DNA of 64,000 nucleotides from Gemmatimonadota bacterium (GTDB lineage Bacteria; Gemmatimonadota; Gemmatimonadetes; Longimicrobiales; RSA9), in assembly GCA_039715185.1 (NCBI GenBank), contig JBDLIA010000008.1, positions 4,207 to 68,206 of the forward strand. The letters are read 5' to 3'. The position numbers were made by a program, and so were the translations under genes. This document shows positions 16,886 through 64,000 of the stretch, one piece after another. The notes under the pieces were generated by a model, which worked only from the letters and a program-made list of their open reading frames with translations, was not told the DNA's origin and did no database searches. The number at the start of each line of letters is the position of its first letter. Position 1 is the first letter of the stretch.

Positions 16886-17628
16886 AGGGTACCTCCGGAG
16901 AGAGTGGATGGCGGGTGAGGCATGCGGCAGGGGATGCCGGTGTGCAGGCTTTCTCGCGCCACGATACCTCCTCCCGAGACCCGCCTTTCGGCAGGGCTCG
17001 AAGCCTGGTTGCCGGCCGTCGCGTCCGTGCGACGGCGGTGTCTCTTCGGCAACCAGGCGATCTCTCAGGGGGAGAGCTGCTGAGAGAGAGATCCTGGGCT
17101 TTGCGAGCCGACCTCGCGGTCGGGGTGCCTTTCTCGGAGCTGTTCGACCCTATGTGCGGGACGCACGAAGGCGCCGGGCCGCCTGAGTCGACGACGGCCC
17201 CGGGGTCCCCTCTACGGGGGACCGCGTTCGGATGGACGTGGGGAGAACGTCATCCAGTTCCTCGCTTGACTACGGATAAGTGTGCGGACGAATCAGCGTC
17301 TTACCGTCCGCCTTTGGAACAGTCACGCGACAGGCGTGGAGAACCCCGCTCTTACGAACCGCTCATTACGTCGGAAGACGTGTGAGCCAGGCTAGCGGAT
17401 CGTTGATCCTAGACTATCGGATCCGGATATCTCCATTCGCAATGTCGATCGCTCCCGCAACCGGCGCAAGCCTTTTCTTCGACGCGCTTCCGGTCATGGA
17501 AGGCGATTTGTGCGCGGTGCCACGGGGCTTTGCTCCTCCGGTGTGTCGGACGATCGACATGGGTTGTGCGTCACAACGTCACGAGGTGGGAGTTGGCAGC
17601 GCCCGCGGGCTGGACCTACCTGAAACGC

Positions 17629-18831: not shown

Positions 18832-19086
18832 GCGCTCCCGCCTGACACATTTTTTCCCGACCGGTATGACGTTTGTCTGCGACATCCGGCTCCCAGCTCC
18901 GGGTCCCACTCCGTTACAGCGTTACCCGACAACGACTTAAGGGCGGTGCCGCTGATGGCACGGCGGGTGCTCACTTTCAAGCCCGCGCGTGAGCCGGGCG
19001 GCACGTCTCGGGGCGCGCAGCCCGCCAGGGCACCGTCCGGTCTCTACTTGGGAAGAGGCCGAGCCTTCTTGCGGTTGGGAGCGGGG

Positions 19087-49945: not shown

Positions 49946-50286
49946 ACAGAAGCGAGCGTCGATCCCTGCCCGTCCTCGGGGCGCCTCACTCCCGCCGGTC
50001 GTCCGATGCCGCGACCGGCAGCGACTCCTGGCTGGCGGGGGTGCAGCCCGATCCGGAGCGGCTTCGGGCGGGATGGGAGCACCGCTTCGTGGCCGACGCA
50101 GAACGAGCCAGGGAGATGGTCCAGCTCTACCTCGAGTTGGGCTTCGAGGTGGCCGCCGACCCCGTTCGCCTGGACGCCGCCGAAGGCGGGTGCACCGCCT
50201 GTTTCGAGGAGAGCGACCAAGGCTATCGATCCATCTACACGCGGCGCGCGTCGGAACGCGCCGCCGACCTCCGCCCGGAAGGATGA
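49942..50286 (+). CDS. Small hypothetical protein translationally coupled to BCR ATPase gene
   Basis: ATG 49942 overlaps the upstream stop as ATGA. 114 aa: [12 protein letters not shown]...WEHRFVADAERAREMVQLYLELGFEV...GGCTACFEE. No family recognised. Only the C-terminal part of track ORF 49504..50286. Confidence 0.45.
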   Translation: MNRSERRSLPVLGAPHSRRSSDAATGSDSWLAGVQPDPERLRAGWEHRFVADAERAREMVQLYLELGFEVAADPVRLDAAEGGCTACFEESDQGYRSIYTRRASERAADLRPEG

Positions 50287-50293
50287 GCGCGTG

Positions 50294-50842
50294 ATGGAGA
50301 AACACCCGACCCAGGTACTGCGCGACGAGCATCAGTGGATCCTGGCCGTGGCGGACGTCCTCTCCTCGCTCCTGGACGACCCCGCCGACCGCCTGGACTA
50401 CGACCGGATCGGCGAGTGCATCGACTTCATGCGACTCTTCGCCGACGCGTGTCATCACGGGAAAGAGGAAGATCACCTCTTCACCGCGCTAGTCGAGCAG
50501 GGGATGCCCAGAGAGCAGGGGCCGATCGCCGTGATGTTGCACGAACACCGACTCGGCCGCGAGCGCGTGTCCGACATGGCCAGCGCCATGCCTGGCGCCC
50601 GCGCCGGCGACTCGAACGATCGGCGGCGTCTGCTTCAGGCTGGTCGAGGATACGTCGAGCTGATCCGCAACCACATCCTCAAGGAAGACAACGTGCTCTT
50701 CGAGATGGCGGATGAGGTCATCACCGGTCCGGCGTGCGCACGACTGTGCGCGGCCTACGACGGCACCTGCGATCACACGTTCGAGGGCCGTACCAAGGAG
50801 CAGCTCGAGGCCCTGGGACGGTCGCTGTTCTCGTCGCCTTGA
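50294..50842 (+). CDS. Hemerythrin (HHE cation-binding) domain protein
   Basis: 182 aa starting MEKHPTQVLRDEHQ. His/Glu ligand pattern: DEHQ, HHGKEEDHLF, LHEHR, HILKEDN. Confidence 0.75.
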   Translation: MEKHPTQVLRDEHQWILAVADVLSSLLDDPADRLDYDRIGECIDFMRLFADACHHGKEEDHLFTALVEQGMPREQGPIAVMLHEHRLGRERVSDMASAMPGARAGDSNDRRRLLQAGRGYVELIRNHILKEDNVLFEMADEVITGPACARLCAAYDGTCDHTFEGRTKEQLEALGRSLFSSP

Positions 50843-51613
50843 TCAGCGCCGCACGGAAATCCGGCGCGTGGTCATTCCGAAGTTGGCGGTGCGGGCGTCG
50901 GTGGCGATCACCTGCAGCTCGAAATCGCCAGCCTCCTGCGCGGAGATCTCGGCCGCATAAAGGCTTCTCTCCCCGCTGAAGCTCAGCGGCCATTCCCCGA
51001 TTACATCCGAGCCTCGAACCAGGCGAGCGCTGATCTCGTAGCCATCGGAATCCCAGGTGCCGCCCGGCTCGGTGGGGCAGCCGCAGAGCATGGTGACGCT
51101 GGCGCGCACGTGGAAGGGGACGCCTACCTGCACCGAATCCTGCGTGGGTTCCTGCAGCTCCACGGTGAAGCCGTTGAGCACCAGTATCACGCCCTCCCCG
51201 ACCACGTGCCGCCCAGGGACGACCAGCAGCGTCTTGGTCGTCGTATGCTGCGTTTCGGCGCCCAGCGGACCGGTACCGCGGATCTCGACGAGCGTGGGGC
51301 GGGCGAGGCTGAGCTCGGCCAGGAATCCGGCCGCGCCTTCGGTGTCGAAGACTGACTCCCCGCGTCCCCGCGGGCCCATTATCTTCGCCGTGTTGCCGGT
51401 AGACCCTTGTTGGACTCCCTCGGCCAGAAGCGCCCCGGTTTCGGCATCCCGTATCGAGATCGACGCGCCCCCCACGCCCGTACCGATGATCTTCGCGTCG
51501 TTCGCGACCACTCGCACCAGTACCTGCGTCGGTTCCTGAGCAGCGAGCGTTCCGGCGACCATCGAACAGGCCGCAAGGCACAGCGCGCAGGCCACAAGAC
51601 GTGCCGTCTTCAT
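50843..51613 (-). CDS. Secreted/lipoprotein of unknown function (beta-sandwich-like)
   Basis: Real start MKTARLVACALCLAACS at 51613. The upstream 400 aa of track ORF 50843..52825 are junk overlapping other genes. Confidence 0.55.
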   Translation of the reverse strand: MKTARLVACALCLAACSMVAGTLAAQEPTQVLVRVVANDAKIIGTGVGGASISIRDAETGALLAEGVQQGSTGNTAKIMGPRGRGESVFDTEGAAGFLAELSLARPTLVEIRGTGPLGAETQHTTTKTLLVVPGRHVVGEGVILVLNGFTVELQEPTQDSVQVGVPFHVRASVTMLCGCPTEPGGTWDSDGYEISARLVRGSDVIGEWPLSFSGERSLYAAEISAQEAGDFELQVIATDARTANFGMTTRRISVRR

Positions 51614-51627
51614 GAAAGCGCTCCGGG

Positions 51628-51819
51628 TCAGCGAATCAGCGCGAGCGGAAGTAGGACCACGTAGCCCAGAACCAGCAGCAGTGGCGCCGCGACGGTCGAG
51701 CCGCCGTTGAGCAGGACGTACCCCAGCACGATGGCGAGAACTCCCGCCCCCATTAGTACCCAGTTCACTCGGGAAAAGCTGAGCGAGTCCGCTCTGGATC
51801 GATTCGATTTTCTTGCCAT
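51628..51819 (-). CDS. Small two-TM membrane protein, hypothetical
   Basis: 63 aa: basic N-terminus followed by two hydrophobic helices (WVLMGAGVLAIVLGYVLL, AAPLLLVLGYVVLLPLALI). Confidence 0.5.
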   Translation of the reverse strand: MARKSNRSRADSLSFSRVNWVLMGAGVLAIVLGYVLLNGGSTVAAPLLLVLGYVVLLPLALIR

Positions 51820-51852: not shown

Positions 51853-52884
51853 TCAACGGTCCGGAGGCGTTTCCGGGCGAGAAGCGGGCGCGTCGTCCTC
51901 CGGGTGCGTGCCGCCATCCGGTCCCGGGCGGATCTCCTCCCCCAGCCAGTAGGCCGGACGGTCGGGCGGCTCCACCAGCGCCTCCCGCCGCTCCGCAGTG
52001 CGACGCCGCCGCAGCCCGTACATGGCGATCAGGATGAGTGCCGCAAAGGCCCAGAACACGGTGGCGTGGGACAGCGCGGTGGCCCAACCGTAGCGTGCCT
52101 TGACGGAGCGCTGCCAGTCGTGCTCGAGCTGGCCGAGGGTGCGGCCGTAGGTGGCGCGCAGAGCCGCGTCCAGCGACCCCATGTCGCGCCAGCGGCGCAG
52201 AAAGCGGGTCAGGCCCTCCTCCCCGCCCTGCTCCAGCAGGTAGCCGACCGCGCTTACGGACAGCAGGTATGCCACCTCCGCCTCCACCGAGCGCGCGGGC
52301 CAGGCGAACGAGATGGAGTCCAACGGCGGCGTCCGGTTCAGCGCGAAGGCAAGCCTGAGCCGCCATTCCGCGCCGGTGCTCCACTCGCCGGCTACCCAGC
52401 GCGCGTACCCCTCGTCGAACCAGCGCGGCACCCGTGCGGGCGCGACGGCGTCGCGCAGCGCGATGTGGGCGAGCTCGTGGCGGAGGGTCCGGAGCAGGGC
52501 CTGCGGGTCTCGATTGCGGCGGCCGAACGCCGGCAGCACGACCGTGCGCGTCGCGGGAAACGCGAACCCCGCCCCCCACTCGGGCAGTCCGCCGCCCGAC
52601 AGCCGGGTCAGCTCGTCCTCCGACCCCGCTACCTCCACGGTAACGGGCGCGCGGTCCACCACCAGCGGCGAGTCGATCGGCAGGCTCGGGAATGGCGCCA
52701 TGTCGCGCGCGGCATCCTCCAGAAAGCGGAGGAGCTCGTCCGCCACTCCGTGTCCGCGCATCTCCACCGCGGGGACCGGGCGCTGGGCCAGCGCCGGCGC
52801 TGCCACCGTGGTGCTCAGCGCGCACATGGCAGCGCAGCTCAGCGCGATCCGGCTCAGGCTCCGGGCGCGGGGCGACAGGAACAC
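51853..52884 (-). CDS. Putative zinc metallopeptidase (HExxH) with signal peptide and C-terminal TM anchor
   Basis: 343 aa. Signal CAAMCALSTTVAAPALAQ, motif LRHELAHIAL, C-terminal TM VFWAFAALILIAMYGL. Confidence 0.6.
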   Translation of the reverse strand: MFLSPRARSLSRIALSCAAMCALSTTVAAPALAQRPVPAVEMRGHGVADELLRFLEDAARDMAPFPSLPIDSPLVVDRAPVTVEVAGSEDELTRLSGGGLPEWGAGFAFPATRTVVLPAFGRRNRDPQALLRTLRHELAHIALRDAVAPARVPRWFDEGYARWVAGEWSTGAEWRLRLAFALNRTPPLDSISFAWPARSVEAEVAYLLSVSAVGYLLEQGGEEGLTRFLRRWRDMGSLDAALRATYGRTLGQLEHDWQRSVKARYGWATALSHATVFWAFAALILIAMYGLRRRRTAERREALVEPPDRPAYWLGEEIRPGPDGGTHPEDDAPASRPETPPDR

Positions 52885-52895
52885 TCTTATTCGAC

Positions 52896-53768
52896 TCAGC
52901 GTGTCCCCGTCTCTCCCTGCAGAACGCCGCGCTGGTGGGGCTCGAGCAGGGCGCTGGCGCGCAGCACCAGGAGGGGCGCCGCTCCGCCGTCGCTCACCAC
53001 GCCCGACACGAGCGCCGCGCTCCGGCCGCTGAAGAGCGCTGGCAGGGGCGCCCAGCGACTCCGCTGGATGGCCTCCACCGCGACGACCTCGTCAACAACC
53101 CAGCCCACCCGCTGGTCCTCCTCCCCCAGTATCAGGACGCGGCGGTCCGGCCCGCGCTCGGGTTCCAGGCCCAGGTGCGGCCCCAGGTCCAGAACCGGCA
53201 TGGCGAACCCCCGCAGCGGCAGCATGCCCAGCACGTAGGACGGCAGTCCGGGGACCGGCTGCGGATCATCGTACGGCCAGATCCTGTCGACGTCGTCGGA
53301 CTCGAACGCGAACTGGTGCGCTCCTATCCGGAAGCGGACCAGCGACAGCGCGTCGGCGGCGCCATCGACGCCGGGCACCGGCGCCTGGCCGCCCTCGCGC
53401 ACCGGCGCGGCGAACAGGCGTTCGAGGTCCAGGCGCGTCACCACGCGGCCGTCCTCGGTCCACGCCTCGACGTCTTCCTCATCCTCTCGCTCCGCGACGC
53501 CGCGCACGGTCTCGACCAGCAACGCGTACACGGTCGACCCCCGGTCCAGTATCAGCGCCACCCCCGGCCCAGGGATCGCCTTCAGCTCCAGCGCCCGCCC
53601 GAGGTCGATGACCGGGAGCCACGATTCTCGATGCTCGATCACGCCGCGGACGCGCTCCGGCATGCCGGGCATGGCGTCCACCACGGGCTCGTCCACGGCC
53701 TCGGTCACGGCGTCCGACGGAATGGCCCAGGTCTCCCCTCCGGCCACGACGAGCAGGTAGCGCGTCAC
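52896..53768 (-). CDS. cheW: Tandem CheW-domain coupling protein
   Basis: 290 aa with two CheW-like halves (LLVVAGGETWAIPSDAV...GVIEHRESWLPVIDL and LVRFRIGAHQFAFESDDV...GMLPLRGFAMPVLDL). Confidence 0.75.
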   Translation of the reverse strand: MTRYLLVVAGGETWAIPSDAVTEAVDEPVVDAMPGMPERVRGVIEHRESWLPVIDLGRALELKAIPGPGVALILDRGSTVYALLVETVRGVAEREDEEDVEAWTEDGRVVTRLDLERLFAAPVREGGQAPVPGVDGAADALSLVRFRIGAHQFAFESDDVDRIWPYDDPQPVPGLPSYVLGMLPLRGFAMPVLDLGPHLGLEPERGPDRRVLILGEEDQRVGWVVDEVVAVEAIQRSRWAPLPALFSGRSAALVSGVVSDGGAAPLLVLRASALLEPHQRGVLQGETGTR

Positions 53769-54841
53769 CGGCGCCCTCGGCGGCTCCGAGCGCGCGGCCG
53801 CGGCCGCTCCGCCACGGCCTCGGCAAGAGCGTCGGCCATCCCGTGCAGTGGAGCGACGCGAGCCGCGTACGGCGCCGCCGCCGCCGGCATGCCGAAGATC
53901 ACGGACGTATCGCGATCCTGCGCCAGCGTGCCGCCGCCCACCTCGCGGATTGCTCGCAGCCCCTCCGCGCCGTCCCGCCCCATCCCCGTCAGCACGGCGC
54001 CCACGGCGCGAGGCCCGGCGTGACGCGCCAGCGACGCCAGCAGGATGTCCCCCGAGGGCCGCACGCCGTGCACGGGCGGGCTGTCCACGAGCCGCTGGAT
54101 CCAGTGTTCCCCGTCGCGGCCGATCTCCAGGTGGGTCCCACCCGGTGCCAGGTAGGCGCAGCCGGCCGCCACCGGCTCGCCGTGCGCCGCCTCGCGCACG
54201 GGAAGCCGCGCGACGCCGTCCAGGCGCTCCGCCAGCGACGCCGTGAAGCGCGGCGGCATGTGCTGCGCGATGAGCACCGCGGCGGGCAGGGTGGGTGACA
54301 GACCGGGCACCAGCTCCATGAGCGCGCGCGGCCCCCCGGTGGAGGCCACGATGCCCACCACCGCCGGCGCCGGCGCCGATTCGGTGCGCGACGCCCGGCG
54401 GCGTCGGCGAGGCGGCACCGGCGGGCGAAACCGCAGGTTCGTGATCCGGGCCATGGCGGCCGCGCGAAGCGCCCTCAGGAGGCGTTCCGCGAACGGCGCC
54501 TCGTCCTCCAGGGTAGCCGGCTTCGCGACGATCTCGGCGGCGCCGTAGTCGAGCGCCCTCAGCACCTCCTCCCCGCGCGCATCCAGCGCGGACACGACGA
54601 CGACCGGCCGCGGGGCCTCGCTCATGATGTACCCCAGCGCGTCGAGGCCGTCGAGGTCGGGCATGCGCAGGTCGAGCGCTACGATCGCGGGGTCGGTCTC
54701 GTGCACCTGCCGGATCGCCTCGTACCCGGTCGCCGCCTCTCCGACCACGGAGAATTCCTGTGACCGCTCGACGACGTCGCGCACGAAGGAGCGCATCATC
54801 ACGCTGTCGTCCACGACCAGAACTCCGGGCGGGCCGGTCAC
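53765..54841 (-). CDS. cheB: Protein-glutamate methylesterase CheB (REC + methylesterase)
   Basis: VLVVDDSVMMR...ALDLRMPDLDG receiver. VVGIVASTGGPRAL and GMGRDGAEGL...VIFGMP catalytic-domain motifs. Confidence 0.9.
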   Translation of the reverse strand: MTGPPGVLVVDDSVMMRSFVRDVVERSQEFSVVGEAATGYEAIRQVHETDPAIVALDLRMPDLDGLDALGYIMSEAPRPVVVVSALDARGEEVLRALDYGAAEIVAKPATLEDEAPFAERLLRALRAAAMARITNLRFRPPVPPRRRRRASRTESAPAPAVVGIVASTGGPRALMELVPGLSPTLPAAVLIAQHMPPRFTASLAERLDGVARLPVREAAHGEPVAAGCAYLAPGGTHLEIGRDGEHWIQRLVDSPPVHGVRPSGDILLASLARHAGPRAVGAVLTGMGRDGAEGLRAIREVGGGTLAQDRDTSVIFGMPAAAAPYAARVAPLHGMADALAEAVAERPRPRARSRRGRR

Positions 54842-55737
54842 GGGCGCCGCCTGTACACGCGCAGCGGGACGGAAACCGTGTCGTAGAGGGTCGCCGAAGC
54901 CCCTACCAGGCTCTCGGCGCGGCCCAGCACGAGGAACCCACCGGGCACGAGCGCCTGGTGCAGCCTCTCCAGAATGGCCGCCTGGGACTCGGAATCGAAG
55001 TACATGATGACGTTGCGGCAGCAGATCAGGTGCTGACCGCGGGGATACCGGCCCGCGAGCAGATCCAGGTGCCAGAAAGCCGCCTTTCGCCTGATGCGAT
55101 CCACCGGTCTGTGGGGCGGGCCGCCCGCCTCGAACCAGCGAGCTCGGTCTTCGTCCGTGGTCTCCGCGAGCCCCAGGTCCGCGTACGCCGCGGCGCGCGC
55201 CGCGTCCAGCGCGTCGGGGTCGATGTCCGTCGCTACGAGGCGAAAGCGGCGGGAGCCGGAGCCGGGTCGGAGCCGGTCGAACTCGTCCAGGAGCATCGCC
55301 AGCGTGTACGCCTCCTCGCCGGCCGCGCAGCCCGCGCTCCAGAGGTTCAGAAACGCGTCGGGGCGCGCGACGAGCTCCGGCAGCACCCGCTCGGCCATGT
55401 GGCGCCAGACGTCGCGGTTCCGGAAGAACCTGCTGACGTTGATCGTGACCGCGGCGAGCAGGCGCTCGTACTCCGCGGGGTCCGCGTGGAGGACGCCAGC
55501 GTACTCCTGGTAGCTGGCGGCCCCGGTGGCCCGCATGCGCACCGCCACTCTGCGCCGAAAACAGGCCTCCTTGTAGCGCGACAGCGAGAGCCCGGTGGCC
55601 AGGTCTATCTGGCGCGTGAGCGCATCCAGTTCCGCCGCCTGCTCCGGCGAGAGCGTGCCGGACGCCAGCGGAAGCAGAGCGGCCGACCCATCGATCGCGC
55701 TCTCGATCGAAGCGGGCGCGTCACTCCGCATTCCCAA
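54838..55737 (-). CDS. cheR: Chemotaxis protein methyltransferase CheR
   Basis: TINVSRFFRN, LWSAGCAAGEEAYTLAM and ICCRNVIMYF motifs. Confidence 0.9.
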   Translation of the reverse strand: MGMRSDAPASIESAIDGSAALLPLASGTLSPEQAAELDALTRQIDLATGLSLSRYKEACFRRRVAVRMRATGAASYQEYAGVLHADPAEYERLLAAVTINVSRFFRNRDVWRHMAERVLPELVARPDAFLNLWSAGCAAGEEAYTLAMLLDEFDRLRPGSGSRRFRLVATDIDPDALDAARAAAYADLGLAETTDEDRARWFEAGGPPHRPVDRIRRKAAFWHLDLLAGRYPRGQHLICCRNVIMYFDSESQAAILERLHQALVPGGFLVLGRAESLVGASATLYDTVSVPLRVYRRRP

Positions 55738-57337
55738 CGACCGCCAGATTCTTGCGGACCACCTCGTTGCGCGGATTCAGGTCCAACGCCCTACGCCAGC
55801 AACGGATCGCGTCTTCCCGCTCGCCGCGCTTGAGGTGCAGATTGCCCATGCGGGCGAACACGTCGTCTCCCAGGTCGGGGGCGGACGTGGTGGCCTTGCG
55901 GTACTGGTCCATCGCGTCGTCGTGGAGGCCCCGGCGATAGGCGATGTCGCCCAGGTTCTTGTAGGTCTGGGGCAACTGCCGATCCGCGTCCAGCGCGCGC
56001 AGGTACAGGCGCTCGGCCTCGTCCAGGTCGGCCTGGCGTTCCGCGATGGCTCCCGCCAGCAGTAGCAGCGGGGCGGACTCCGGAAAGGCACGCAGGCCCG
56101 CTTCCATTGTCGCGCGCGCCTCGTCCAGGCGTCCGGTCACCGCCGCGAGCAGGCCGGCCAGGTGAAAGAACGGCGCCGAGGGGGGTCGGTCGCCCAACCT
56201 GCGCCGGTACTCGACGAGGTGTTCGCCGGCGCCGCCCCAGTCGCCCCGCTCGGCGAGGATCGCCGCCCTGTGGAGCGATACGATCTCCGAATCGGGCGCC
56301 AATGACTCCGCCTCGTCCAGAACCAGCAGCGCGTCGGCGGCGCGCTCGAGCATGCGCAGCCCGTAGGCGAGCGATACGAACGCGCCGTGCTGGGGGCCCT
56401 GTTCTTCCAGGACGGCCTTGAGCCGCTGGACCGCGTCGCGTGGCCGGCCTCGCTGCAGTGCGATCCTGGCCAGGTAGGAACGCGCGGCGGAGTCCTTGGG
56501 CCTGATCTCGAGCACGCGCCGGAACTCCGCCTCGGCCTCCTCGAGCATGCCCGTCGAGTAGAACGCCGTGCCCAGGTTCAGCCGCTCGCTGAAGTCCGCT
56601 TCCCGCTCGGCGCTGGCGCCCTGCGCGCGCTGGCCCACCCGCTGCGCGAACCCCGCCTGAATCAGTCCGTAGAGGGCCTTGCCGGCGTCGAACTCCGCCA
56701 GGCCGCTGCGATCGGCGATCTCCGCGACGGTCGTCGCTCCATCCACGAGCGGCAGGATCCTCTCCTGCTCCGGCGTCAGCGCCAATCCCGCGTCGTGCAG
56801 CCGGTCGTGGTCCAGATCGAAGACGTCCTCCAGAGAAGGGATCTTCTTGGCGATGACGCTCCACTCGTCCACCCTGCGGGCGCCCTCCAGGAGCAGGCTT
56901 TCCGGGTTGATCGACACCAGGAACTCGGTCTCGCCCGGACGTTGATCCACCTCGAAAAAGAAACCCCCCTGAGACCACGTGAACAGGAAGTAAACCGCCT
57001 CTTCGATCTGCGCCCGGACGCGCTCCCGCAGCGCCTCCTCGTCGAGCCACCCGCGCGCGAGCAGGATCTGCCCCAGGCGGCGCTCGGGGGATCGGCCCTG
57101 CTCCTGCAACGCTTCGGCGAGCTGTTCGGCCGACACCACGCCCTCGGCCACCAGGAGGTCGCCCAGCCGGTCGCGCCGGTTCACCACGCTGGCGAACGTG
57201 ATGCGGCCCCCGTCGAAGTAGATGCGGCCGAAGCGCTCGCGGTCGGTGATGGACAGGCAGCCCGACTTCATCCCCATCGCCAGCAGCTGGCACACGTCCG
57301 CCAGGCTCGCCTCTCGGAGGCTCCCCTTGATTGCCAT
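55721..57337 (-). CDS. DUF4388 (PATAN-like) + T2SSE_N-like + TPR-repeat protein
   Basis: N-terminus MAIKGSLREASLADVCQLLAMGMKSGCLSI...IYFDGGRI is typical of DUF4388. LGDLLVAEGVVSAEQLAEAL motif. About 7 TPR repeats at the C-terminus. Overlaps cheR by 17 nt. Confidence 0.75.
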   Translation of the reverse strand: MAIKGSLREASLADVCQLLAMGMKSGCLSITDRERFGRIYFDGGRITFASVVNRRDRLGDLLVAEGVVSAEQLAEALQEQGRSPERRLGQILLARGWLDEEALRERVRAQIEEAVYFLFTWSQGGFFFEVDQRPGETEFLVSINPESLLLEGARRVDEWSVIAKKIPSLEDVFDLDHDRLHDAGLALTPEQERILPLVDGATTVAEIADRSGLAEFDAGKALYGLIQAGFAQRVGQRAQGASAEREADFSERLNLGTAFYSTGMLEEAEAEFRRVLEIRPKDSAARSYLARIALQRGRPRDAVQRLKAVLEEQGPQHGAFVSLAYGLRMLERAADALLVLDEAESLAPDSEIVSLHRAAILAERGDWGGAGEHLVEYRRRLGDRPPSAPFFHLAGLLAAVTGRLDEARATMEAGLRAFPESAPLLLLAGAIAERQADLDEAERLYLRALDADRQLPQTYKNLGDIAYRRGLHDDAMDQYRKATTSAPDLGDDVFARMGNLHLKRGEREDAIRCWRRALDLNPRNEVVRKNLAVVGNAE

Positions 57338-57365
57338 CAGGCGGCTCCGGTGGCCGGAGAGAGCC

Positions 57366-59165
57366 TCATCGGTCCCCCTCCGTCAGCCACTGGGCCACGT
57401 AGGGCCAGCGCCACACGACCTTGTCGCGCGCCAAGAAGAAGGCGTCCTCGTGCCCTCCGGCTCCGTCGGCCCCGCTCGACAGCGACGCCGCCGGCTCCCG
57501 CTGCGGGGGGGGCGGCTCCGCCGGTGCCGCGGCGGCGTCCCCTCCCGGGCCCTCGGCTTCTTCGGCCCCGCCGCCGGCCCTGTCCTCCAGCCCGACCACG
57601 AGGCCGGCCGCCAGACGGGAGCGCAGGCGGTCCTCCAACCCCGCTATCTGCGCCGGCGGTACGGTCCCGGTGAACGCCAACTGCGCGCCGCTCCTGAGCA
57701 GCGCGTCGAACAGGTGGAACAACTCCTCCTGGGCGCGTTCGGTATCGGCCAAGATGTCCACGTCCTCGAGCAACAGTGCGCCGGCGCCGCGGAAGCGCGC
57801 TCGCCACTCCTCGACCTGGTTGCGCTCGAGGGCCTGGATCAGCTCATCCGCGAACGCCTTGCCCGACATGAACGCCACCGGCCGGTCCGGATTGCGCTCG
57901 GCGATGCGGTTCCCCAGTGCGCCGAGCAGCGCGGACCGAACCGGCGAGGCGTGGCCGTGGACGTACAGCGGGTTGTAGCGCGAGCCGGGTTGTTCTGCCG
58001 CCGCGCGGGCGGCGCGCAGAGCCAGGCTGCCGTCATCCAGCTCTACGCGCGCGAATTGATACTCCGACGGGGGGGCGGGCAGCGGTTGACGCCGCTGCCG
58101 CACGGCCGCGAGCATGGCCTCGGCGTCGCCGATCCGGTCCGGATCGCGCAGCACACCCCAGTGCAGCTCGGGTGCGCCCGGATCCACCGAACGGATCTGG
58201 GCGTCGATTTCCCGCAACCGATCCACGTCGGCCTCGAAGGCGCGCACCGCTTCCTCCACTTCGGACGGGCCGTGCGATCCGTGCAGGAGGGCCTCCAGCC
58301 GGCTGGTGCGGTAGCCGTCCGCCTCCCACCTCATGACCGCCCCCGCGAGCTGTTGATCCTCGGCGGAGCGGGACACGACCGTGTCCATCGCGAGCGACAC
58401 GTCGGCCACGAAGTCGCCGAACTCCGACTCCCCCTTCGGCTCGGGACCCACGCCCACGAGGCGCCCCGCTTCATCCGTCCCAACGACGCGTTCCTCGAGT
58501 TCCTGAATGGCGAGCACCCGGTTCAAGGCGCCCTGGAGCTCGCGCACGTTGGAGAAGGTCGAGCGTGCCAGCAGCTCGGCGACACCGTCGGCCAGTTCCT
58601 GGGCCTGCTCCTCGGCCTTGCGGCGCACGATGGCGACCCTGGTCTCCAGGTCGGGGGCACCGATGTCCACTATGAGGCCGCCCGAAAAACGCGACAGGAG
58701 CCTGTCGTCCAACCCGTCGATCTCCTGCGGCGGCCGGTCGCTGGTCAACACGACCTGTCCCCCGCGGGCCGACATGGCGTCCCACACGCGGATCAACTCC
58801 TCCTGCGTCCTGCGTTTCCCGGCCAGGAACTGCACGTCGTCCAGGATGAGCAGACCCACGTCCTGGAAACGGGCGCGGAACGCGTCGCGGTCTCCGGCCT
58901 CGATGGCCTCCATCGCCCGATCCATGAAGCGTTCGAGCGTGTCGTAGACGACCTTGAGCGCCGGGTGGTCCAAGCCGGCCTGGTGGCCGATCGAGGTCAC
59001 GAGGTGCGTCTTGCCGAGCCCGGAGCCGCCGTAGATGAACAGCGGGTTGTACGACGACCCGGGCGACTCCGCCACGCGCTTGGCCGCGGCCACGGAAAGA
59101 CGGTTGCCGGTACCCACGACGAAATTGTCGAAGGTGAACGAGGGAACGAGGTCGACCGAGTTCAC
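57366..59165 (-). CDS. DnaA-like tandem AAA+ protein: intact DnaA domain III + degenerate second copy, no DnaA N-terminal or DNA-binding domain IV
   Basis: aa 10-225 align colinearly with DnaA domain III ([65 protein letters not shown]). aa 369-528 repeat the pattern but with GHASPVRS in place of the Walker A. Start overlaps the mglA stop (59162-59165). Confidence 0.85.
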
Positions 59166-59797
59166 GACCCCACCCCCTGCCCCGCGGTCGGCGCCGGCAC
59201 GATCGGCTGCCTATACCGGTCGGAAAGTCGCCGTAGCACGAGCTCGCTGGCCGTTCTCAGCGTTTCGAACACGCCCTCTCCGCTAATGGCCGTAGCGGCG
59301 TACTCGGGCACGCCCCGGAAGTTGAGCACGTCGCTGAGCACCTCAACCGGCAACGCGTCCGGCAGGTCGCGCTTGTTGTATTGCATCACCAGCGGCACCT
59401 CACGCACGTCCAGGCCCTCGGCGGAGAGATTCTCGTGCAGGTTACGCAGGCTGGTCACGTTCTCCGCGAGCACGCGCGGCTGCGAATCCGCGACGAACAC
59501 GACCCCGTCGGCGCCTCGCAGCACCAGCTTTCGGGTCGCGTCGTAGTAGACCTGCCCGGGCACCGTGTAGAGCTGAAGCCGAGTCCGAAACCCCGAGATG
59601 GATCCCAGATCGAGGGGGAGAAAATCGAAGAACAGGGTGCGGTCGGTCTCCGTGGCGAGGGACATCATTTCGCCCGTGCGGCCGCGCGGCAGCCGGCCGT
59701 GCACGTGCTGAAGATTGGTCGTCTTGCCGGATCGCCCTGGCCCGTAGTAGACGATCTTGCAGGTGATCTCGCGGGTGGAGTAGTTGACCAGCGACAT
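59162..59797 (-). CDS. mglA: MglA, Ras-like polarity GTPase
   Basis: Near-colinear with Myxococcus MglA: [70 protein letters not shown]. Confidence 0.92.
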
Positions 59798-59800
59798 CGG

Positions 59801-60286
59801 CTATCCGCGCTCTCCCATCACCCGTCGAACCCCGGCCTCCAACTCGTGCTCGAAGCGGCTCGCGTCCCGCACGGAGCTGGCCCCGCCGAGCTCCCGGATC
59901 TCCCGGAGCTGGTCGCCGAGCCGGTCGCTGAACAGCCGCACTATCCCCAGCGATGTCGCCCTGTCGAAGATGGCTACGAGGATCAAGTCGGAGCCTCCAA
60001 CTTCGTGCGGCGCCAGCAGCATCTGCTGGGTTCGTCCCTGGTTGTGCAGGTGAGTCCACCTGCGTACGCCCGTCATGTCCGCGAGGGCACCCGCTGCGGC
60101 GTGGGCGGCCGCCGCCAGCGAAGCCACGTTAGTAACCTCGTAGCCGCGGCTGAATCCCTGCTGGGCGAGAAGCTGGCCGCTGGCGTTCACGAGCACGGCC
60201 GTGCGCACCCTGCTCTCGCGCACGAACTCGCGGAGGGGCGCGCGCAGCCGCTCGACGAGGACAGCCAGCTCCTCCTGCGTTCTCAC
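59801..60286 (-). CDS. mglB: MglB, Roadblock/LC7-domain GTPase-activating protein
   Basis: 161 aa Roadblock fold (RTAVLVNASGQLLAQQG...LILVAIFD). Sits immediately upstream of mglA in the canonical mglBA order. Confidence 0.8.
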   Translation of the reverse strand: MRTQEELAVLVERLRAPLREFVRESRVRTAVLVNASGQLLAQQGFSRGYEVTNVASLAAAAHAAAGALADMTGVRRWTHLHNQGRTQQMLLAPHEVGGSDLILVAIFDRATSLGIVRLFSDRLGDQLREIRELGGASSVRDASRFEHELEAGVRRVMGERG

Positions 60287-60630
60287 GCGAGCGCCTCTAC
60301 CGCGCGGCTCGCCTCCACGCTCAACGATGCCAGCTGCGCGTCGGGAGCGGCCAGCGCGACGATGAGCATCTCCCCGGCCCCCGCGACGTGCAGGTAACCG
60401 CCGCTGGCGGCCAACTGCAGCGTGCGCAATCGCCCGGCGCCGGCGAGGTCGCTGCCGCGCGCGGTGCGCCGGAACAGCTCCGCCGCGAGCGCCGCAGTGG
60501 CGTTCCCGTCTACGTCGGAGTCGACCTCCATGACTACCGGCACGCCCATGTCGGCGTCGACCAGCAGGGCGGCGCGCACGCCGTCTACCCTGAGCAGCCG
60601 CTCCAGCGCGCGTTCGTATGCCTCAACCAC
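60283..60630 (-). CDS. Roadblock/LC7 domain protein (MglB paralog)
   Basis: 115 aa: VDGVRAALLVDADMGVPV...GGYLHVAGAGEMLIVALA. Overlaps mglB by 4 nt. Confidence 0.75.
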   Translation of the reverse strand: MVEAYERALERLLRVDGVRAALLVDADMGVPVVMEVDSDVDGNATAALAAELFRRTARGSDLAGAGRLRTLQLAASGGYLHVAGAGEMLIVALAAPDAQLASLSVEASRAVEALA

Positions 60631-61579
60631 GGTCTTCTCCCAGGAACGCGCGCGCGATCTCGGACGCCGCGCCCGCGGTGTGCAGCACCCAGCCGGTCGG
60701 CGCGACGCCGTCGGCGGTTATCAGGACGGCGTGCCGCTTCCCCACAGGACCCAGGTGGGCGGCCGCGTCGTCGGTCTGCATGTGAACCCCCCGCCAGGCG
60801 CCCAGACCCAGCAACTCGGCCGTCCGCTCGGCCTCGCCGGCGGCCCCCCGCAACGCCGCCCCGGCGGCGTCCGACTCCACGGCGGGAGTTCCGAGTCGAC
60901 CGCCTATGACGAAGCCGGCGCCGTCGACCAGGAGCGCGCCGCGAAACGGGCCGTTTCCGGCCAGCTCCTCGAACAGTCGCCCGGGATCACGCGCGCTTGG
61001 CGCCGCGCTCGCGGGGGAGTCTCCCTGGCCGGCGGGCGCTGGCGTGGGGGTCGGGGTCGACCGCGTGTCGGCGACCGGGCCGGGTGGGGGCGCGGGGGCC
61101 GGCGGACGCGACGCCTCGCTTGCGGCCGCCTGGTGCCCCAGGAGCGGCCCGGAGGGCGCCGCCTGCGCTGTCTTGCGCGCCACCAACTCGAGCGCCTCCC
61201 GCGTGAGCGCGTCGGCCGGGCGACGAGCGGCCGCGCGCTCCAGGTATGCGGTGGCCCCGAGCAGGTCGCCACGCTCCAGGCGCACGAAGCCCATGCCCCG
61301 GTTCGCTTCGAAGTGCGCGGGGTCCAGCCGCAGCACGACCCCCCACTCGTCGAAGGCCTTCTCGCGTTCCCCTCGCTCGAGATGGAGCCGCGCCAGGAGC
61401 GCGTGTGCGCCGGCGTGGTCGGGCCGCCGCTCCAGGCCACGCAGACACACGCGCAGCGCGCCGTCCAGGTTCCCCTGCCGCCGGTACGCGTCGGCCAGGT
61501 TCACGAACGTCGGCGCACCCGGATCGCGGGCGACCTCCAGGCTCCACCGCTGCACGTCAGCGGGCGCGGGCTTCGTCAT
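60623..61579 (-). CDS. TPR + Pro/Ala-rich linker + C-terminal Roadblock/LC7-like domain protein
   Basis: Real start MTKPAPADVQRW at 61579 (ATGA overlap with the upstream stop). TPR repeats (ADAYRRQGNLDGALRVCLRGLERRPDH...). C-terminus FRGALLVDGAGFVIGG...AVLITADG is Roadblock-like. The track ORF to 62275 is an over-extension. Confidence 0.7.
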   Translation of the reverse strand: MTKPAPADVQRWSLEVARDPGAPTFVNLADAYRRQGNLDGALRVCLRGLERRPDHAGAHALLARLHLERGEREKAFDEWGVVLRLDPAHFEANRGMGFVRLERGDLLGATAYLERAAARRPADALTREALELVARKTAQAAPSGPLLGHQAAASEASRPPAPAPPPGPVADTRSTPTPTPAPAGQGDSPASAAPSARDPGRLFEELAGNGPFRGALLVDGAGFVIGGRLGTPAVESDAAGAALRGAAGEAERTAELLGLGAWRGVHMQTDDAAAHLGPVGKRHAVLITADGVAPTGWVLHTAGAASEIARAFLGEDRG

Positions 61580-62751
61580 CGTCCTCCTTGGGATGAATCG
61601 GCAGTGGACATCGTGAGGCGTTCGCGCTCCGGGGGATAGGGGCCGTCTCGCAGCACCGAGCTCAGCGCCCGAAGCGCTTCGGTGCCGCGCAACGCGAGCG
61701 GCGCCCGCTCGTCGCCGTGCCCGAGCGCCAGAAACCACTCCCAGGCCTCTCCGGCCCGCTGGAGATCCCCGATCCGGGCCGCCGTGAAGCCCAGCTGAAA
61801 ATGCGCATCCGCCGATGTCGGCTCCAACCCGACGGCCTGCGCGAACGCCTCGGTGGCCGCGCGCATGCGCCCCTGGGCTGCGAGCGCCCTGCCCACAAGC
61901 AGGACCGGCTCGAACCGCCCGGGGTGACCCGCCGCGGCCGCCTGGGCCTCGCGCTCCGCTCCGCGCCAGTCCCCAGCCGCCAGCATCGTCTCCGCCGACG
62001 CCAGCGCTGCCTCGAGTTGCTCGGCGCCGGGCTCCGCCTGCGCGTGTTGGATCTCGACCACCCCCGTCGCGATCAGGCCGTAGACGATCTTGGCGACGGC
62101 GAACGTCCCACGCCCCACGGTCGCGGCCACGCGCCGCAAATCGGCCGCTCCATCGACGGCGGCGAGCACCGCCCATTCGTCGGGCCTGAGGTCCAGCGTC
62201 GTGTTGCCCGGAGGCGCGTCCGAAAGCACCGGCACCGCCTCCATGGTGGGAATACGTGCCTCCAACCGACTCCACTCGTCGATCCGACGCGCGCCTTCCA
62301 TCAACATCGACTCCACGCGCACCAGCACGCCCGTGGCGTCCGTCGCGGGCTTTCCTTCAACGAAACGGAACTCGCCCTCGCGCCATCCCAGCAGGTCGTA
62401 GACCGATTCCTCCATGTGGAAGCGGAGTTGGCGCTCCAGCTCCTCTTCGGACACGCTGCCCATCTCGACGAGGACCTGTCCGATGAGCTGTCCCGGGCGC
62501 TCTTTTTGTAGCGACAGGGCGCGCTGCAACTCTCCCTCCGTCAGCTTGCCCGCCCGCACCAGGTGCTCCGCCAAGCGCCGAACGGGGCGCTTGCGACGCA
62601 CCAGGTAGAGGGCCCCCTCGCTGAAATGCAGCTCCACCTCGTCGCGGTGCCGCTCGGAACGGATGTGCAGCAACCCGCTTTTTTTTGTCAGGTCCAGGAG
62701 CTGGAGCACGTCCTCCAGCCCGAGTTCGTGAAGCGGACCCTCGATCGCCAT
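61576..62751 (-). CDS. DUF4388 (PATAN-like) + TPR protein, paralog of 55721..57337
   Basis: MAIEGPLHELGLEDVLQLLDLTKKSGLLHI...LHFSEGAL matches the N-terminus of the 55721 protein. LAEHLVRAGKLTEGELQRAL motif. C-terminal TPRs. Confidence 0.75.
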   Translation of the reverse strand: MAIEGPLHELGLEDVLQLLDLTKKSGLLHIRSERHRDEVELHFSEGALYLVRRKRPVRRLAEHLVRAGKLTEGELQRALSLQKERPGQLIGQVLVEMGSVSEEELERQLRFHMEESVYDLLGWREGEFRFVEGKPATDATGVLVRVESMLMEGARRIDEWSRLEARIPTMEAVPVLSDAPPGNTTLDLRPDEWAVLAAVDGAADLRRVAATVGRGTFAVAKIVYGLIATGVVEIQHAQAEPGAEQLEAALASAETMLAAGDWRGAEREAQAAAAGHPGRFEPVLLVGRALAAQGRMRAATEAFAQAVGLEPTSADAHFQLGFTAARIGDLQRAGEAWEWFLALGHGDERAPLALRGTEALRALSSVLRDGPYPPERERLTMSTADSSQGGR

Positions 62752-64000
62752 CAGGCGGCTCCCACGTCACGCGGAGCCACGCCCAGGCCGTCCAGAGCGT
62801 CGCGAGCACGCGCGTGGCCCGGGTCGAACGCGAGGACCCGCCGAAACGCGGTTGCCGCGTCCTCGACGCGATCCTGCGCGGCCAGGTACTCGCCGAGCCG
62901 GTGCAGCCCGTCCAGGTGGTAGGGGTCGGCCGACAGGAAGTCTGCCAGGGTAGCGATCGCGCCGGACGGGTCGCCCGTGCGCCGCAGCAGCCTGGCGAGG
63001 GTGATCGCCGCATCTGCGTAGCTGGGGAGCGCCTCCAGCGCGGCCCGCAGGGTGGCCGTGGCTTCCTCCTCCCGGCCGACCGCGGCCAGCGCCCGCCCCA
63101 GGCCGGTCATGGCCGCGGGGCTGTCGGGCTCCAGCGACAGCGCCAGGCGGAAGAGTCGCTCGGCGTCCGGCCCCTGCCCCGACGCCAGGCGGGCGTGGCC
63201 GGCGTCGAGCGCCGCCCCGGCGCGGTCCTCCACGCCCTCTTCCAGCGCGCGTTCGAGCGCCTCGGCCGCCTCGGCCGGGCGCCCGTTGGCCGCGAGCGCC
63301 TGTCCGTGCACGCGCAGCGCCGACGCGGCGTCCCGCGCGCCCGCCAGCTCCGTGGTGACCAGCAGCGCCTCCGCGGCCCGGTCGAGTTGAAGGAGCGAAC
63401 GGGCGCGCCCGAGCTCGGCCGCTATCCGGGTGGCCTCCGGTAGGTCATCGCCCGCTTCGACCGCGAGCAGAGCGTCGAAGCGCTCCAGTGCTTCGCCGGC
63501 GAACCCCTGGCGCAGGAACGCCTCCGCCCGCACCAGCAGCACCTCGGCGCGCGGCGCCCCGCGCTCGGCCGCAGCGCGTGCCGCCCCGTGCACCTCGTGC
63601 AGGTCGCCGCGGGCGAGGGCTCGCCGTGCGACGGCCAGCGGGTCTGCGGGACGATCCGCTTGCCGGGCCGGATCGACGGCGGCCTCGCTCCGCGCAACTC
63701 CCTCGGGCGTTGCGGCGACGGCCGCCGTGGCCGGGTCTCCGGCGGTCCCTTCCGCGAGCGCCAGCACGAAGGGCGAGGGCGAAGTGTCCGCATCCGTCCT
63801 GTCCTGCGTCGGCGAGGCCGTCTCGGCCGCCGGCCGCTGCAGGGACTCGAACACATCGGCCAGCGCTTCAGACTCGAAGCGAAACTCCTCGACTCCCCCC
63901 TCCCCCGCCACGCGCCGTTCCGCGGCCAGCTCCGGAGCGGGGACCCCGGCCTCCTCGAAATGAAGGTCTATGAGAAGCCGAAAACGCGGCGCCGGGAAGA
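62751..64000 (-). CDS. TPR-repeat protein, 5' end probably beyond the window
   Basis: The track gives 62751..63911, but the frame stays open to 64000 (..FPAPRFRLLIDLHFEEAGVPAPELAAERR upstream of the listed GTG). Several TPR-like repeats. Its stop shares one nt with the next start (TGATG). Confidence 0.65.
   Translation of the reverse strand, partial: FPAPRFRLLIDLHFEEAGVPAPELAAERRVAGEGGVEEFRFESEALADVFESLQRPAAETASPTQDRTDADTSPSPFVLALAEGTAGDPATAAVAATPEGVARSEAAVDPARQADRPADPLAVARRALARGDLHEVHGAARAAAERGAPRAEVLLVRAEAFLRQGFAGEALERFDALLAVEAGDDLPEATRIAAELGRARSLLQLDRAAEALLVTTELAGARDAASALRVHGQALAANGRPAEAAEALERALEEGVEDRAGAALDAGHARLASGQGPDAERLFRLALSLEPDSPAAMTGLGRALAAVGREEEATATLRAALEALPSYADAAITLARLLRRTGDPSGAIATLADFLSADPYHLDGLHRLGEYLAAQDRVEDAATAFRRVLAFDPGHARARDALDGLGVAPRDVGAA

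Follow-up and report, generated by a model that had tools for sequence, protein, structure and literature searches.

What could a Ras-like polarity GTPase, a DnaA-like ATPase and the adaptation enzymes of a chemosensory pathway have to do with one another, that their genes should lie side by side? This question is raised by a 64,000-nucleotide (nt) stretch of DNA from a Gemmatimonadota bacterium (GenBank assembly GCA_039715185.1, contig JBDLIA010000008.1, positions 4,207 to 68,206 of the forward strand), the whole of which is referred to here as the window. At one end it carries a run of minus-strand genes for MglA and MglB, further Roadblock proteins, tetratricopeptide repeat (TPR) proteins, two PATAN-domain proteins (PATAN1 and PATAN2), an ATPase with two DnaA-type modules (DnaA2x), CheR, CheB and CheW. 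Comparison with related genomes indicates that they make up the downstream two-thirds of a longer array, of about 17 closely spaced genes on one strand, which is conserved throughout the phylum Gemmatimonadota. The answer that we favour, with somewhat better than even confidence, is a Frz-like arrangement in which a chemosensory pathway would have the MglA/MglB polarity switch as its output, and the switch would use TPR and PATAN scaffolds to act, most likely, on the motor of type IV pili, with cyclic di-GMP (c-di-GMP) as a second input and DnaA2x as an ATP-dependent partner of a PATAN-TPR protein. The pilus as the specific target is held with less confidence than this reading as a whole.

A conserved array in Gemmatimonadota

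Relatives of the locus can be found with a profile of the family-specific C-terminal half of DnaA2x, which was run against GTDB representatives (one genome per species) and gave 134 confirmed relatives. The loci of 80 of these 134 were examined, and locus maps were made by tblastn of 17 query proteins. All 80 belong to Gemmatimonadota (Longimicrobiales, Gemmatimonadales and Gemmatimonadaceae), and the recurrent order, on one strand, is (cheW)-cheY-cheA-cheC-bigTPR-PATAN1-TPR/Roadblock-Roadblock-mglB-mglA-DnaA2x-PATAN2-cheR-(cheD)-cheB-(cheW-cheW)-Peptidase_MA. The same order is seen in gene calls with precomputed Pfam matches on two long contigs. Spacing is conserved along with order: for each pair of neighbours between cheY and cheB, a median of 0-23 nt separates the stop codon of one gene from the first codon of the next that could be aligned (47-78 loci), and the junction from DnaA2x to PATAN2 is the tightest, with a median of 0 nt (78 loci). 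Since the same order recurs with equally tight junctions in 47-78 orthologous loci, the array stands far above chance. A first-pass annotation of the window, made from its sequence alone, had proposed that the genes form a single unit, an idea open to refutation by relatives with another neighbourhood; the order common to the 80 loci and the tight junctions across the phylum uphold it.

The chemosensory genes fall into two blocks, one on either side of an inner module of eight genes. Of the 48 loci that have 2.6 kb or more of sequence on each side, 40 carry both blocks and seven carry neither, while the upstream block alone occurs once and the downstream block alone never. Because presence co-varies despite the eight genes between them, the two blocks behave as one system.

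The members of the array that lie in the window, as identified by open reading frame (ORF) listing, translation and Pfam scans, are as follows (aa, amino acids).

62751..64000, running past the edge, minus strand: 3' part (416 codons) of a big all-TPR protein; Pfam TPR matches
61576..62751, minus strand: PATAN1, a DUF4388/PATAN domain followed by TPR, 391 aa; Pfam PF14332, E 1.5e-29
60623..61579, minus strand: TPR protein with a C-terminal Roadblock domain, 318 aa; Pfam TPR, Robl_LC7 at 21.8 bits (cutoff 23), hhalign
60283..60630, minus strand: stand-alone Roadblock/LC7 protein, 115 aa; Pfam Robl_LC7, E 5.7e-9
59801..60286, minus strand: MglB homologue, 161 aa; Pfam Robl_LC7, E 3.1e-7, and M. 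xanthus MglB by phmmer against the PDB, E 2.5e-13
59162..59797, minus strand: MglA, group-1 Ras-like GTPase, 211 aa; match to M. xanthus MglA, E 3.5e-74
57366..59165, minus strand: DnaA2x, tandem DnaA-type AAA+ protein, 599 aa; Pfam Bac_DnaA in two stretches, E 3.9e-90
55721..57337, minus strand: PATAN2, a DUF4388/PATAN domain followed by a long TPR region, 538 aa; Pfam, E 3.9e-36
54838..55737, minus strand: CheR methyltransferase, 299 aa; Pfam CheR_N and CheR
53765..54841, minus strand: CheB, receiver and methylesterase, 358 aa; Pfam
52896..53768, minus strand: CheW-CheW, 290 aa; Pfam CheW in two stretches, E 5.3e-45
51853..52884, minus strand: Peptidase_MA_2 protein (HExxH) with hydrophobic N- and C-terminal segments, 343 aa; Pfam PF13485, E 1.9e-14

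The first eleven of these had been described in the first-pass annotation, with their domains and as overlapping by 1-17 nt or lying no more than 28 nt apart, and all of this is borne out. With the longest ORF taken for each gene, the junctions from the big TPR gene to the CheW-CheW gene are overlaps of 1, 4, 8 and 4 nt, a gap of 3 nt, an overlap of 4 nt, a gap of 28 nt, and overlaps of 17, 4 and 4 nt. The peptidase gene is a twelfth member, 11 nt beyond the CheW-CheW gene, and its position is kept in most related loci, including versions without che and mgl genes. The 4-nt overlap of cheR and cheB in the window genome leaves no cheD between them, whereas most relatives have one.

At the other end, the big TPR gene had been said to continue past position 64000, and it does. 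There is no in-frame stop from 62751 up to the edge, so the start at 63911 in the ORF list is merely the first start codon inside it. Logan contig L001, identical to the window (0 mismatches in 4257 nt), adds 1.5 kb and is still inside the gene, giving a protein of at least 928 residues with TPR throughout; in relatives, where this gene is the first of the inner module, between cheC and PATAN1, the protein has 832-960 aa.

Internal promoters or terminators had been named as features that might split the array. Consensus scans inside it found two promoter-like and two terminator-like sites, none above shuffled expectation and the terminators below it, but such scans are uninformative here; the promoter consensus may not suit this phylum.

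The kinase block and the receptor

Within the window, CheW-CheW, CheR and CheB are the only chemosensory genes, and the first-pass annotation had accordingly called the set kinase-less. This is most probably an artefact of the window edge. The genes cheW-cheY-cheA-cheC lie directly upstream of the big TPR gene in 40 of the 48 loci with enough flank, and the two nearest relatives, L005 and L024 (84% and 81% identity over the C-terminal half of DnaA2x), have cheY-cheA-cheC there. For the window genome the evidence is indirect, though consistent. Sequencing run SRR27843388, which yielded contigs L001 and L004 that are identical to the window, also gave contig L085, with the order lspA'-rluD-cheW-cheY-cheA-cheC. 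L085 ends 28 nt past the cheC stop codon, and in an alignment to L005 the two contigs abut, with L001 starting about 17 codons inside the big TPR gene. The CheA of L085 (P0129), found by homology, is MEN8376733.1, "MAG: chemotaxis protein CheA [Gemmatimonadota bacterium]", and the DnaA-like protein of the window has 100% identity to MEN8374393.1 of a 69,840-nt contig, "MAG: DnaA/Hda family protein [Gemmatimonadota bacterium]"; these two proteins of Gemmatimonadota metagenome-assembled genomes (MAGs) are 2340 accession numbers apart. L085 is thus probably from the same MAG as the window.

The CheA has the architecture Hpt-P2-HATPase_c-CheW, with no receiver. CheY is a single-domain protein, and the array holds no dual-receiver protein. 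A block of cheA and a gene for a methyl-accepting chemotaxis protein (MCP) immediately upstream had been put forward as the finding that would reduce the locus to a Frz-like cluster abutting mglBA. Much of such a block is indeed there, as cheW-cheY-cheA-cheC; however, it has no mcp, and it does not abut a separate unit, since the mgl module sits between cheC and cheR.

The statement that the locus has no receptor gene stands, for the window and for some 10 kb around the locus in every related case. Neither an MCP signalling domain, by tblastn at E up to 1e-3 with the Tar signalling domain as query and no positive control, nor the hairpin-tip motif was found in the window and 91 loci (1.53 Mb). 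The receptor may be encoded elsewhere in the genome.

Layers of the array

Loci that lack parts of the array are useful for seeing which genes belong together. In L061, which has no che genes, the order is ileS-dksA-like-lspA-rluD-[eight-gene module]-TPR-peptidase-TPR-mraW-ftsI. Three loci from two Gemmatimonadales genomes (L017/L003, 9498-11917, and L028) have no mglA between mglB and the DnaA-like gene and keep all else; in these genomes the Walker A motif of the second AAA+ module is degenerate too. Smaller still are L089, with rluD-Roadblock (a weak match)-DnaA2x-PATAN2-peptidase, and L088, with rluD-[DnaA2x fused to PATAN-TPR]-peptidase. The 1026-aa fusion protein of L088 (P0329) is rare, being known from a single 90% cluster, and it agrees with the junction of DnaA2x and PATAN2 being the tightest of the array. 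As L088 and L089 retain little else, the minimal core appears to be DnaA2x, a PATAN-TPR protein and the peptidase, around which MglA, MglB, Roadblock and TPR proteins would make up the next layer and the che genes the outermost one. DnaA2x-family matches that carry an organism name are all from Gemmatimonadota, names being available for just 2 of the 10 proteins in representative-cluster look-ups.

A gene for an NtrC-type protein follows the peptidase in L089. In the window, an NtrC-type sigma-54 activator (receiver, Sigma54_activat and HTH_8) adjoins a HAMP histidine kinase at 2735-5847 (minus strand).

A tandem DnaA-type ATPase

Source databases label members of the DnaA2x family "chromosomal replication initiator protein", and the first-pass annotation likewise hinted at an initiator-type or cell-cycle role. 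This label is an annotation trap, as DnaA domain III has non-replicative paralogues, and the hint finds little to stand on: Pfam gives Bac_DnaA (PF00308) twice, and no match to DnaA_N (domain I) or Bac_DnaA_C (domain IV). Residues 6-234 align to domain III of B. subtilis DnaA (PDB search, E 3.8e-64), so that the protein begins at the domain III boundary, and the match to TIGR00362 spans only model positions 103-329. The layout is a complete domain III (about 6-235), a helical middle (268-358), a second AAA+ core (381-525), a disordered linker and a conserved C-terminal peptide. An AlphaFold (AF2) model from 23 family members has a mean pLDDT of 81.5 and a predicted TM-score (pTM) of 0.46. It shows AAA+ cores at about 20-235 and 381-525, confident helices at 268-358, and disorder at 241-265 and 530-573; because of the low pTM, the relative placement of the two AAA+ modules is unreadable from it. 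The best Foldseek match of the model is DnaA domain III (8bv3), with a target TM-score of 0.93 and a root-mean-square deviation of 1.6 A.

A motif census of 83 orthologues sets the two modules apart. The first keeps the Walker A lysine (80/83) and threonine (79/83), the DD of Walker B (82/83), the sensor II arginine (83/83), and Arg155 (83/83) and Arg159 (79/83) of box VII. In the second, GK[ST] is kept in 61 and lost in 22, including the window copy (GHASPVRS), and both box VII arginines are present in all 83. By its motifs the first module would be a complete ATPase. The second, often without a Walker A of its own, could donate an arginine finger, a reading suggested by the retention of its box VII arginines despite the loss of Walker A.

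Tests for known roles point away from replication. The match to the Hda model TIGR03420 reaches 117 bits, below the cutoff of 194.8, and no clamp-binding motif of the QL[SD]LF type was seen at the N-terminus. The arginine that contacts single-stranded DNA (R245 in E. coli) is not conserved in the family, by our own mapping of the alignment onto E. coli DnaA numbering, which disfavours origin unwinding. A role as replication initiator is therefore not supported by the sequence. At its C-terminus (57366-57430), after a disordered, low-complexity linker of 40-50 residues, DnaA2x carries the conserved peptide D.WFLSREKVVW.WPY, which may serve as a docking peptide for one of the TPR proteins of the array.

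The DnaA-type fold also occurs in larger multiples. P0290, a 1248-aa protein (L086 and L087, 10001-13747), has nine stretches matching the DnaA-type profile and is apparently a multi-module DnaA-AAA+ array; its neighbours, UQ_con, Peptidase_C25 and H+-PPase, are unrelated to those of DnaA2x.

PATAN-TPR proteins and c-di-GMP

PATAN1 and PATAN2 both carry TPR, and neither has a Response_reg match. With PATAN fused to TPR and not to a receiver, they are not PatA-type response regulators. The NCBIfam model NF053729 ("cyclic di-GMP-binding domain, MshE-related"; cutoff 38) matches both, PATAN2 with 54.8 bits (residues 57-106) and PATAN1 with 42.8 bits (residues 59-110), in a segment taken to be an alpha-helical insertion of the PATAN domain. 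The MshEN motif consists of two 24-residue copies of RLGxx(L/V/I)(L/V/I)xxG(L/V/I)(L/V/I)xxxxLxxxLxxQ with a 5-residue spacer (Wang et al., PMC5013675), and PATAN2 contains two strict 24-residue motifs of this type, at residues 57-80 and 87-110. Binding of c-di-GMP by PATAN2 is a reasonable prediction from these matches.

The source organism clearly uses c-di-GMP, since the window encodes two PAS-GGDEF-EAL proteins of c-di-GMP turnover, at 6134-7963 and 18946-21231 (both plus strand), and a c-di-GMP-I riboswitch (RF01051) at 17045-17139 (minus strand; 51.4 bits, gathering score 35). The riboswitch lies 159 nt upstream of a 1129-aa ORF (13496-16885, minus strand) that is rich in Asp (12.8%) and Thr (10%), has a lipoprotein-like N-terminus and no Pfam match, and may encode a c-di-GMP-controlled surface protein.

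MshEN and DnaA-type AAA+ domains are found together in another setting. Several fusions of the two, the longest of 1990 aa, occur within clusters of type IV pilus genes on two contigs that are unrelated to each other (L090, 3359-14973; L091, 2681-13179). In L090 they stand between pilD and pilB-pilT-pilC-pilS, and in L091 between pilD and pilB, just past which the contig ends. They were considered as close relatives of DnaA2x and rejected as such: they are nearer to canonical DnaA and represent an analogy, or independent parallel, and not orthologues.

MglA and the Roadblock proteins

The MglA of the array aligns without gaps to residues 1-192 of M. xanthus MglA and is about two-thirds identical to it, as judged by eye from the alignment. 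It keeps the P-loop GPGRSGKTT, Arg53 (the intrinsic arginine finger), Thr78 in place of the usual Asp, Gln82 and NKRD, all with the numbering of the M. xanthus protein. By these features it is a group-1 member of the MglA family with its catalytic motifs intact.

Three proteins of the array carry Roadblock domains. The product of the gene directly upstream of mglA scores 48.7 bits with the NCBIfam MglB model, below the 200-bit equivalog cutoff; by homology and position it is a candidate GTPase-activating protein of MglA with the Roadblock fold. For the TPR fusion, where Pfam itself is marginal, a profile-profile comparison settles the Roadblock call: its C-terminal domain family matches the neighbouring Roadblock family with an hhalign probability of 95% (E 3e-8). 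The stand-alone Roadblock protein has only generic Roadblock matches in the PDB search. It sits where an MglC-like partner would, a statement about position that does not imply orthology to MglC.

Proposed function

The Frz-like arrangement can be set out as a chain of steps. Receptors encoded elsewhere would signal to CheA through CheW and the CheW-CheW protein, with adaptation by CheR, CheD and CheB and dephosphorylation of CheY by CheC. Phosphorylated CheY would act on the Roadblock/MglB side of the MglA switch, as the Frz system acts on MglA and MglB to control polarity in Myxococcus (PMC4316618). MglA-GTP would then recruit the TPR and PATAN-TPR proteins to one pole, where they would act most likely on the type IV pilus motor. 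The motor is a likely target because PATAN domains bind pilus proteins in cyanobacteria, as in the chemosensory systems of Synechocystis, whose output domain, PATAN, contacts PilB1 and PilC (bioRxiv 10.1101/2021.06.11.447907). For a second input, c-di-GMP would act through the MshEN-like insertion of the PATAN domains. DnaA2x, not being an initiator, would be an ATP-dependent partner of the PATAN-TPR protein encoded downstream of it, as an oligomerising scaffold or as a timer.

Several published observations bear on a pilus output. A TPR effector, SgmX, is reported to be linked to type IV pilus polarity in Myxococcus (PMC7519303), and PATAN proteins are among the candidates in a Myxococcus study of type IV pilus regulators. 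Many of the related loci come from isolates labelled SMAG_, which we take to stand for a soil MAG catalogue. Among Gemmatimonadota MAGs, flagellar genes are reported in one or two soil genomes only, and type IV pilus genes in every environment except marine (PMC10581226). As a piece of weak evidence, the locus tag of the G. phototrophica CheA that is co-regulated with flagella appears far from both Roadblock genes listed in a transcriptome supplement for that species.

A bolder and rather improbable reading gives the core a mechanism of its own. DnaA2x together with the MshEN-like PATAN-TPR protein would be an unrecognised switch or scaffold driven by ATP and c-di-GMP, with the fold of an initiator ATPase co-opted for control of polarity or pili and wired, in most Gemmatimonadota, to the MglA cycle and a chemosensory pathway. 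A stronger version would add cross-talk with the genuine DnaA, tying motility or polarity state to replication.

The link between chemosensory signalling and MglA was worked out genetically in Myxococcus, where the genes are scattered and the interface proteins hard to find; here a single array appears to spell out the whole chain of kinase, regulator, phosphatase, Roadblock proteins, GTPase, scaffolds and adaptation enzymes. From it come candidates for the interface (the three Roadblock proteins, the PATAN-TPR proteins and the ATPase with two DnaA-type modules), and it suggests an input from a second messenger, all in a phylum that is abundant in soil and barely studied. The model is testable because cultured Gemmatimonas species carry the locus (GAU_1409).

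Weighing the evidence

Care must be taken with several points that weigh against a Frz-like arrangement acting on pili. Pilus genes are absent from the window and from those flanks that were looked at. The placement of the kinase block beside the window draws on alignment to L005, the shared run and the nearby accession numbers, as L085 and L001 have no sequence overlap. The c-di-GMP input is uneven across the family: the motif spacer of PATAN2 has 6 residues, not 5; the strict MshEN pattern is passed twice by 10 of 78 PATAN2 orthologues and once by 23, with 66 passing a relaxed pattern at least once; and PATAN1 mostly fails it, the window copy passing neither the strict nor the relaxed form. 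The AAA+ modules of the MshEN-DnaA fusions in pilus clusters are 57% identical to canonical DnaA (B. subtilis domain III) and 45% to DnaA2x (BLAST). The module also persists without che genes in 7 of the 48 loci and without mglA in L017/L003, L028, L088 and L089, from which it follows that the layers can work apart. Finally, the housekeeping genes upstream, ileS, lspA and rluD, are equally syntenic, and gene order within one phylum alone is therefore no proof of functional coupling.

The last two of these points also favour an account by descent, in which two or three functionally independent units have stayed neighbours within the phylum and share nothing beyond read-through transcription: the chemotaxis operon, of a conventional kind, the mglBA-Roadblock-TPR genes and the DnaA2x-PATAN-peptidase genes. 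It agrees with this account that all matches come from one phylum. Although it is the serious rival to our reading, we regard it as unlikely. The inner module splits the che genes, yet the two blocks are gained and lost together (40 with both, 7 with neither, 1 mixed); the seams from cheC to the big TPR gene and from PATAN2 to cheR are as tight as the junctions within blocks, and remain so in lineages whose DnaA2x is only 38-45% identical over the C-terminal half. In addition, the components are functionally linked elsewhere, Frz with MglA in the literature and PATAN in chemosensory output. A different coupling, to replication or the cell cycle, would have DnaA2x bind or inactivate the genuine DnaA in the manner of Hda, so that the operon would link chemosensory or polarity state to initiation or division. 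The closeness of the first module to DnaA domain III in both sequence and model, with its box VII and sensor II arginines kept, speaks for it, as do the position of the module just upstream of mraW-ftsI in L061 and a DivIVA gene a few genes upstream in L088 and L089. However, as described above, Pfam gives no domain I or IV family, no clamp-binding motif was seen and R245 is not conserved across the family; the constant partners of DnaA2x are the PATAN-TPR protein and the peptidase, not replication genes; and adjacency to division and cell-wall (dcw) genes is seen in some loci only. We consider this coupling distinctly unlikely, more so than the account by descent.

Two further explanations fare worse. 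A self-contained switch, without kinase or receptor, whose CheR, CheB and CheW would have a substrate other than an MCP, encoded in the operon itself, fits the lack of an MCP gene in the window and in every related locus, but cheA, cheY, cheW and cheC are directly upstream in relatives and on the same-run contig, and a set with CheD, CheR and CheB implies that a classical receptor is the substrate. Receptor genes are often scattered over bacterial genomes, and we think a switch of this kind very improbable. Lower still in our estimate, and scarcely credible, is an anti-phage or conflict system built from NTPases and TPR proteins: the array does contain a peptidase and proteins of the AAA+, GTPase and TPR kinds, but PADLOC matches are marginal and of the TPR and AAA type only (E 6e-5 or weaker), the chromosomal position beside housekeeping genes is fixed across the phylum, and the MglA closely resembles a Myxococcus motility protein.

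Comparison with known systems

The nearest counterpart is the combination of Frz with MglA/MglB/MglC/RomR and SgmX in Myxococcus, which likewise joins a Che-type pathway to a group-1 MglA, MglB, an extra Roadblock protein and large TPR proteins. The logic presumably shared is that chemosensory output resets a GTPase polarity axis. The Frz cluster is marked by FrzE, a fusion of CheA and a receiver, by the cytoplasmic receptor FrzCD and by the dual receiver FrzZ. In contrast, the array described here has a CheA without receiver fusion, no MCP in the cluster and no dual-receiver protein, and it has CheC and CheD. No RomR-like gene was seen in the array, and the PATAN-TPR proteins and the tandem DnaA-type ATPase are without a described counterpart in this role in Myxococcus. 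Arrangement differs too: mglA in Myxococcus and Bdellovibrio, and mglBA in the former, are not encoded near the genes of their interaction partners (PMC4316618), whereas here the module lies between cheC and cheR.

Other systems share single parts. The cyanobacterial Tax and Pix clusters, with PatA-type (PATAN-REC, that is, PATAN-receiver) regulators of PilB1 and PilC, resemble the array in that a chemosensory cluster holds PATAN proteins, but here PATAN is joined to TPR, and an MglA/MglB switch and an AAA+ protein are interposed. Tax and Pix clusters carry their own receptor gene. The actinobacterial conservons (CvnA-D) are conserved operons in which a sensor kinase is wired to a Roadblock protein and a GTPase of the MglA family (PMC4316618); their GTPase is of group 2 and their kinase a membrane histidine kinase, not CheA, and they have no PATAN, TPR or AAA+ protein. 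DnaA and Hda share with DnaA2x the AAA+ fold of DnaA domain III, Walker A and B, the box VII arginines and sensor II. Hda has one AAA+ module, about 230 aa long, and a clamp-binding motif at its N-terminus, whereas DnaA2x is a 599-aa chain of two modules, with a family-specific helical middle and C-terminal peptide and with signalling genes as partners; by analogy, an Hda-like arrangement within the tandem, one module giving an arginine finger to the other, is plausible. The MshEN receptors at the N-termini of MshE and PilB have two tandem 24-residue motifs, each with a strict match in PATAN2, where the pair lies within a PATAN domain and not at the N-terminus of a secretion ATPase, with the longer spacer and the many deviating orthologues noted above. 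Taken by its sequences, the array resembles Frz plus MglAB but appears to belong with none of Frz, DnaA, Hda or the PatA-type regulators.

Part of the neighbourhood is already in the literature. An MglA/MglB-PATAN neighbourhood was published by Makarova et al. in 2006, as cited in PMC4316618, and Wuichet and Sogaard-Andersen (PMC4316618) list GAU_1409 of G. aurantiaca as "PATAN>MglA>-PATAN>", in which the dash is the unnamed DnaA-like gene; a second pair of this species, GAU_1115, is given as "MglB>MglA>". Among open-access papers and preprints, we found none on an mgl module embedded in a che operon, on a DnaA-type partner or on an MshEN-like insertion in PATAN. The first-pass annotation had judged the composition to be undescribed, and in that literature no paper describing it was found; its overall interpretation survives as an unusual, conserved and undescribed composition, and falls in its claim that there is no kinase.

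Other features of the window

The G+C content of the window, taken in 2-kb windows, is 63-76%. At 50006-50842 (plus strand) and 50843-51650 (minus strand), a convergent gene with a hemerythrin domain and a small ORF of secreted or lipoprotein-like type (256 aa as called on L004) follow the array and mark the 3' end of the co-directional block. An unusual fusion is seen in an 824-aa ORF at 22893-25367 (plus strand), which combines a complete DnaJ (J domain, zinc-finger domain and C-terminal domain) with C-terminal RCC1 repeats; the RCC1-type beta-propeller is a GTPase exchange factor in eukaryotes.

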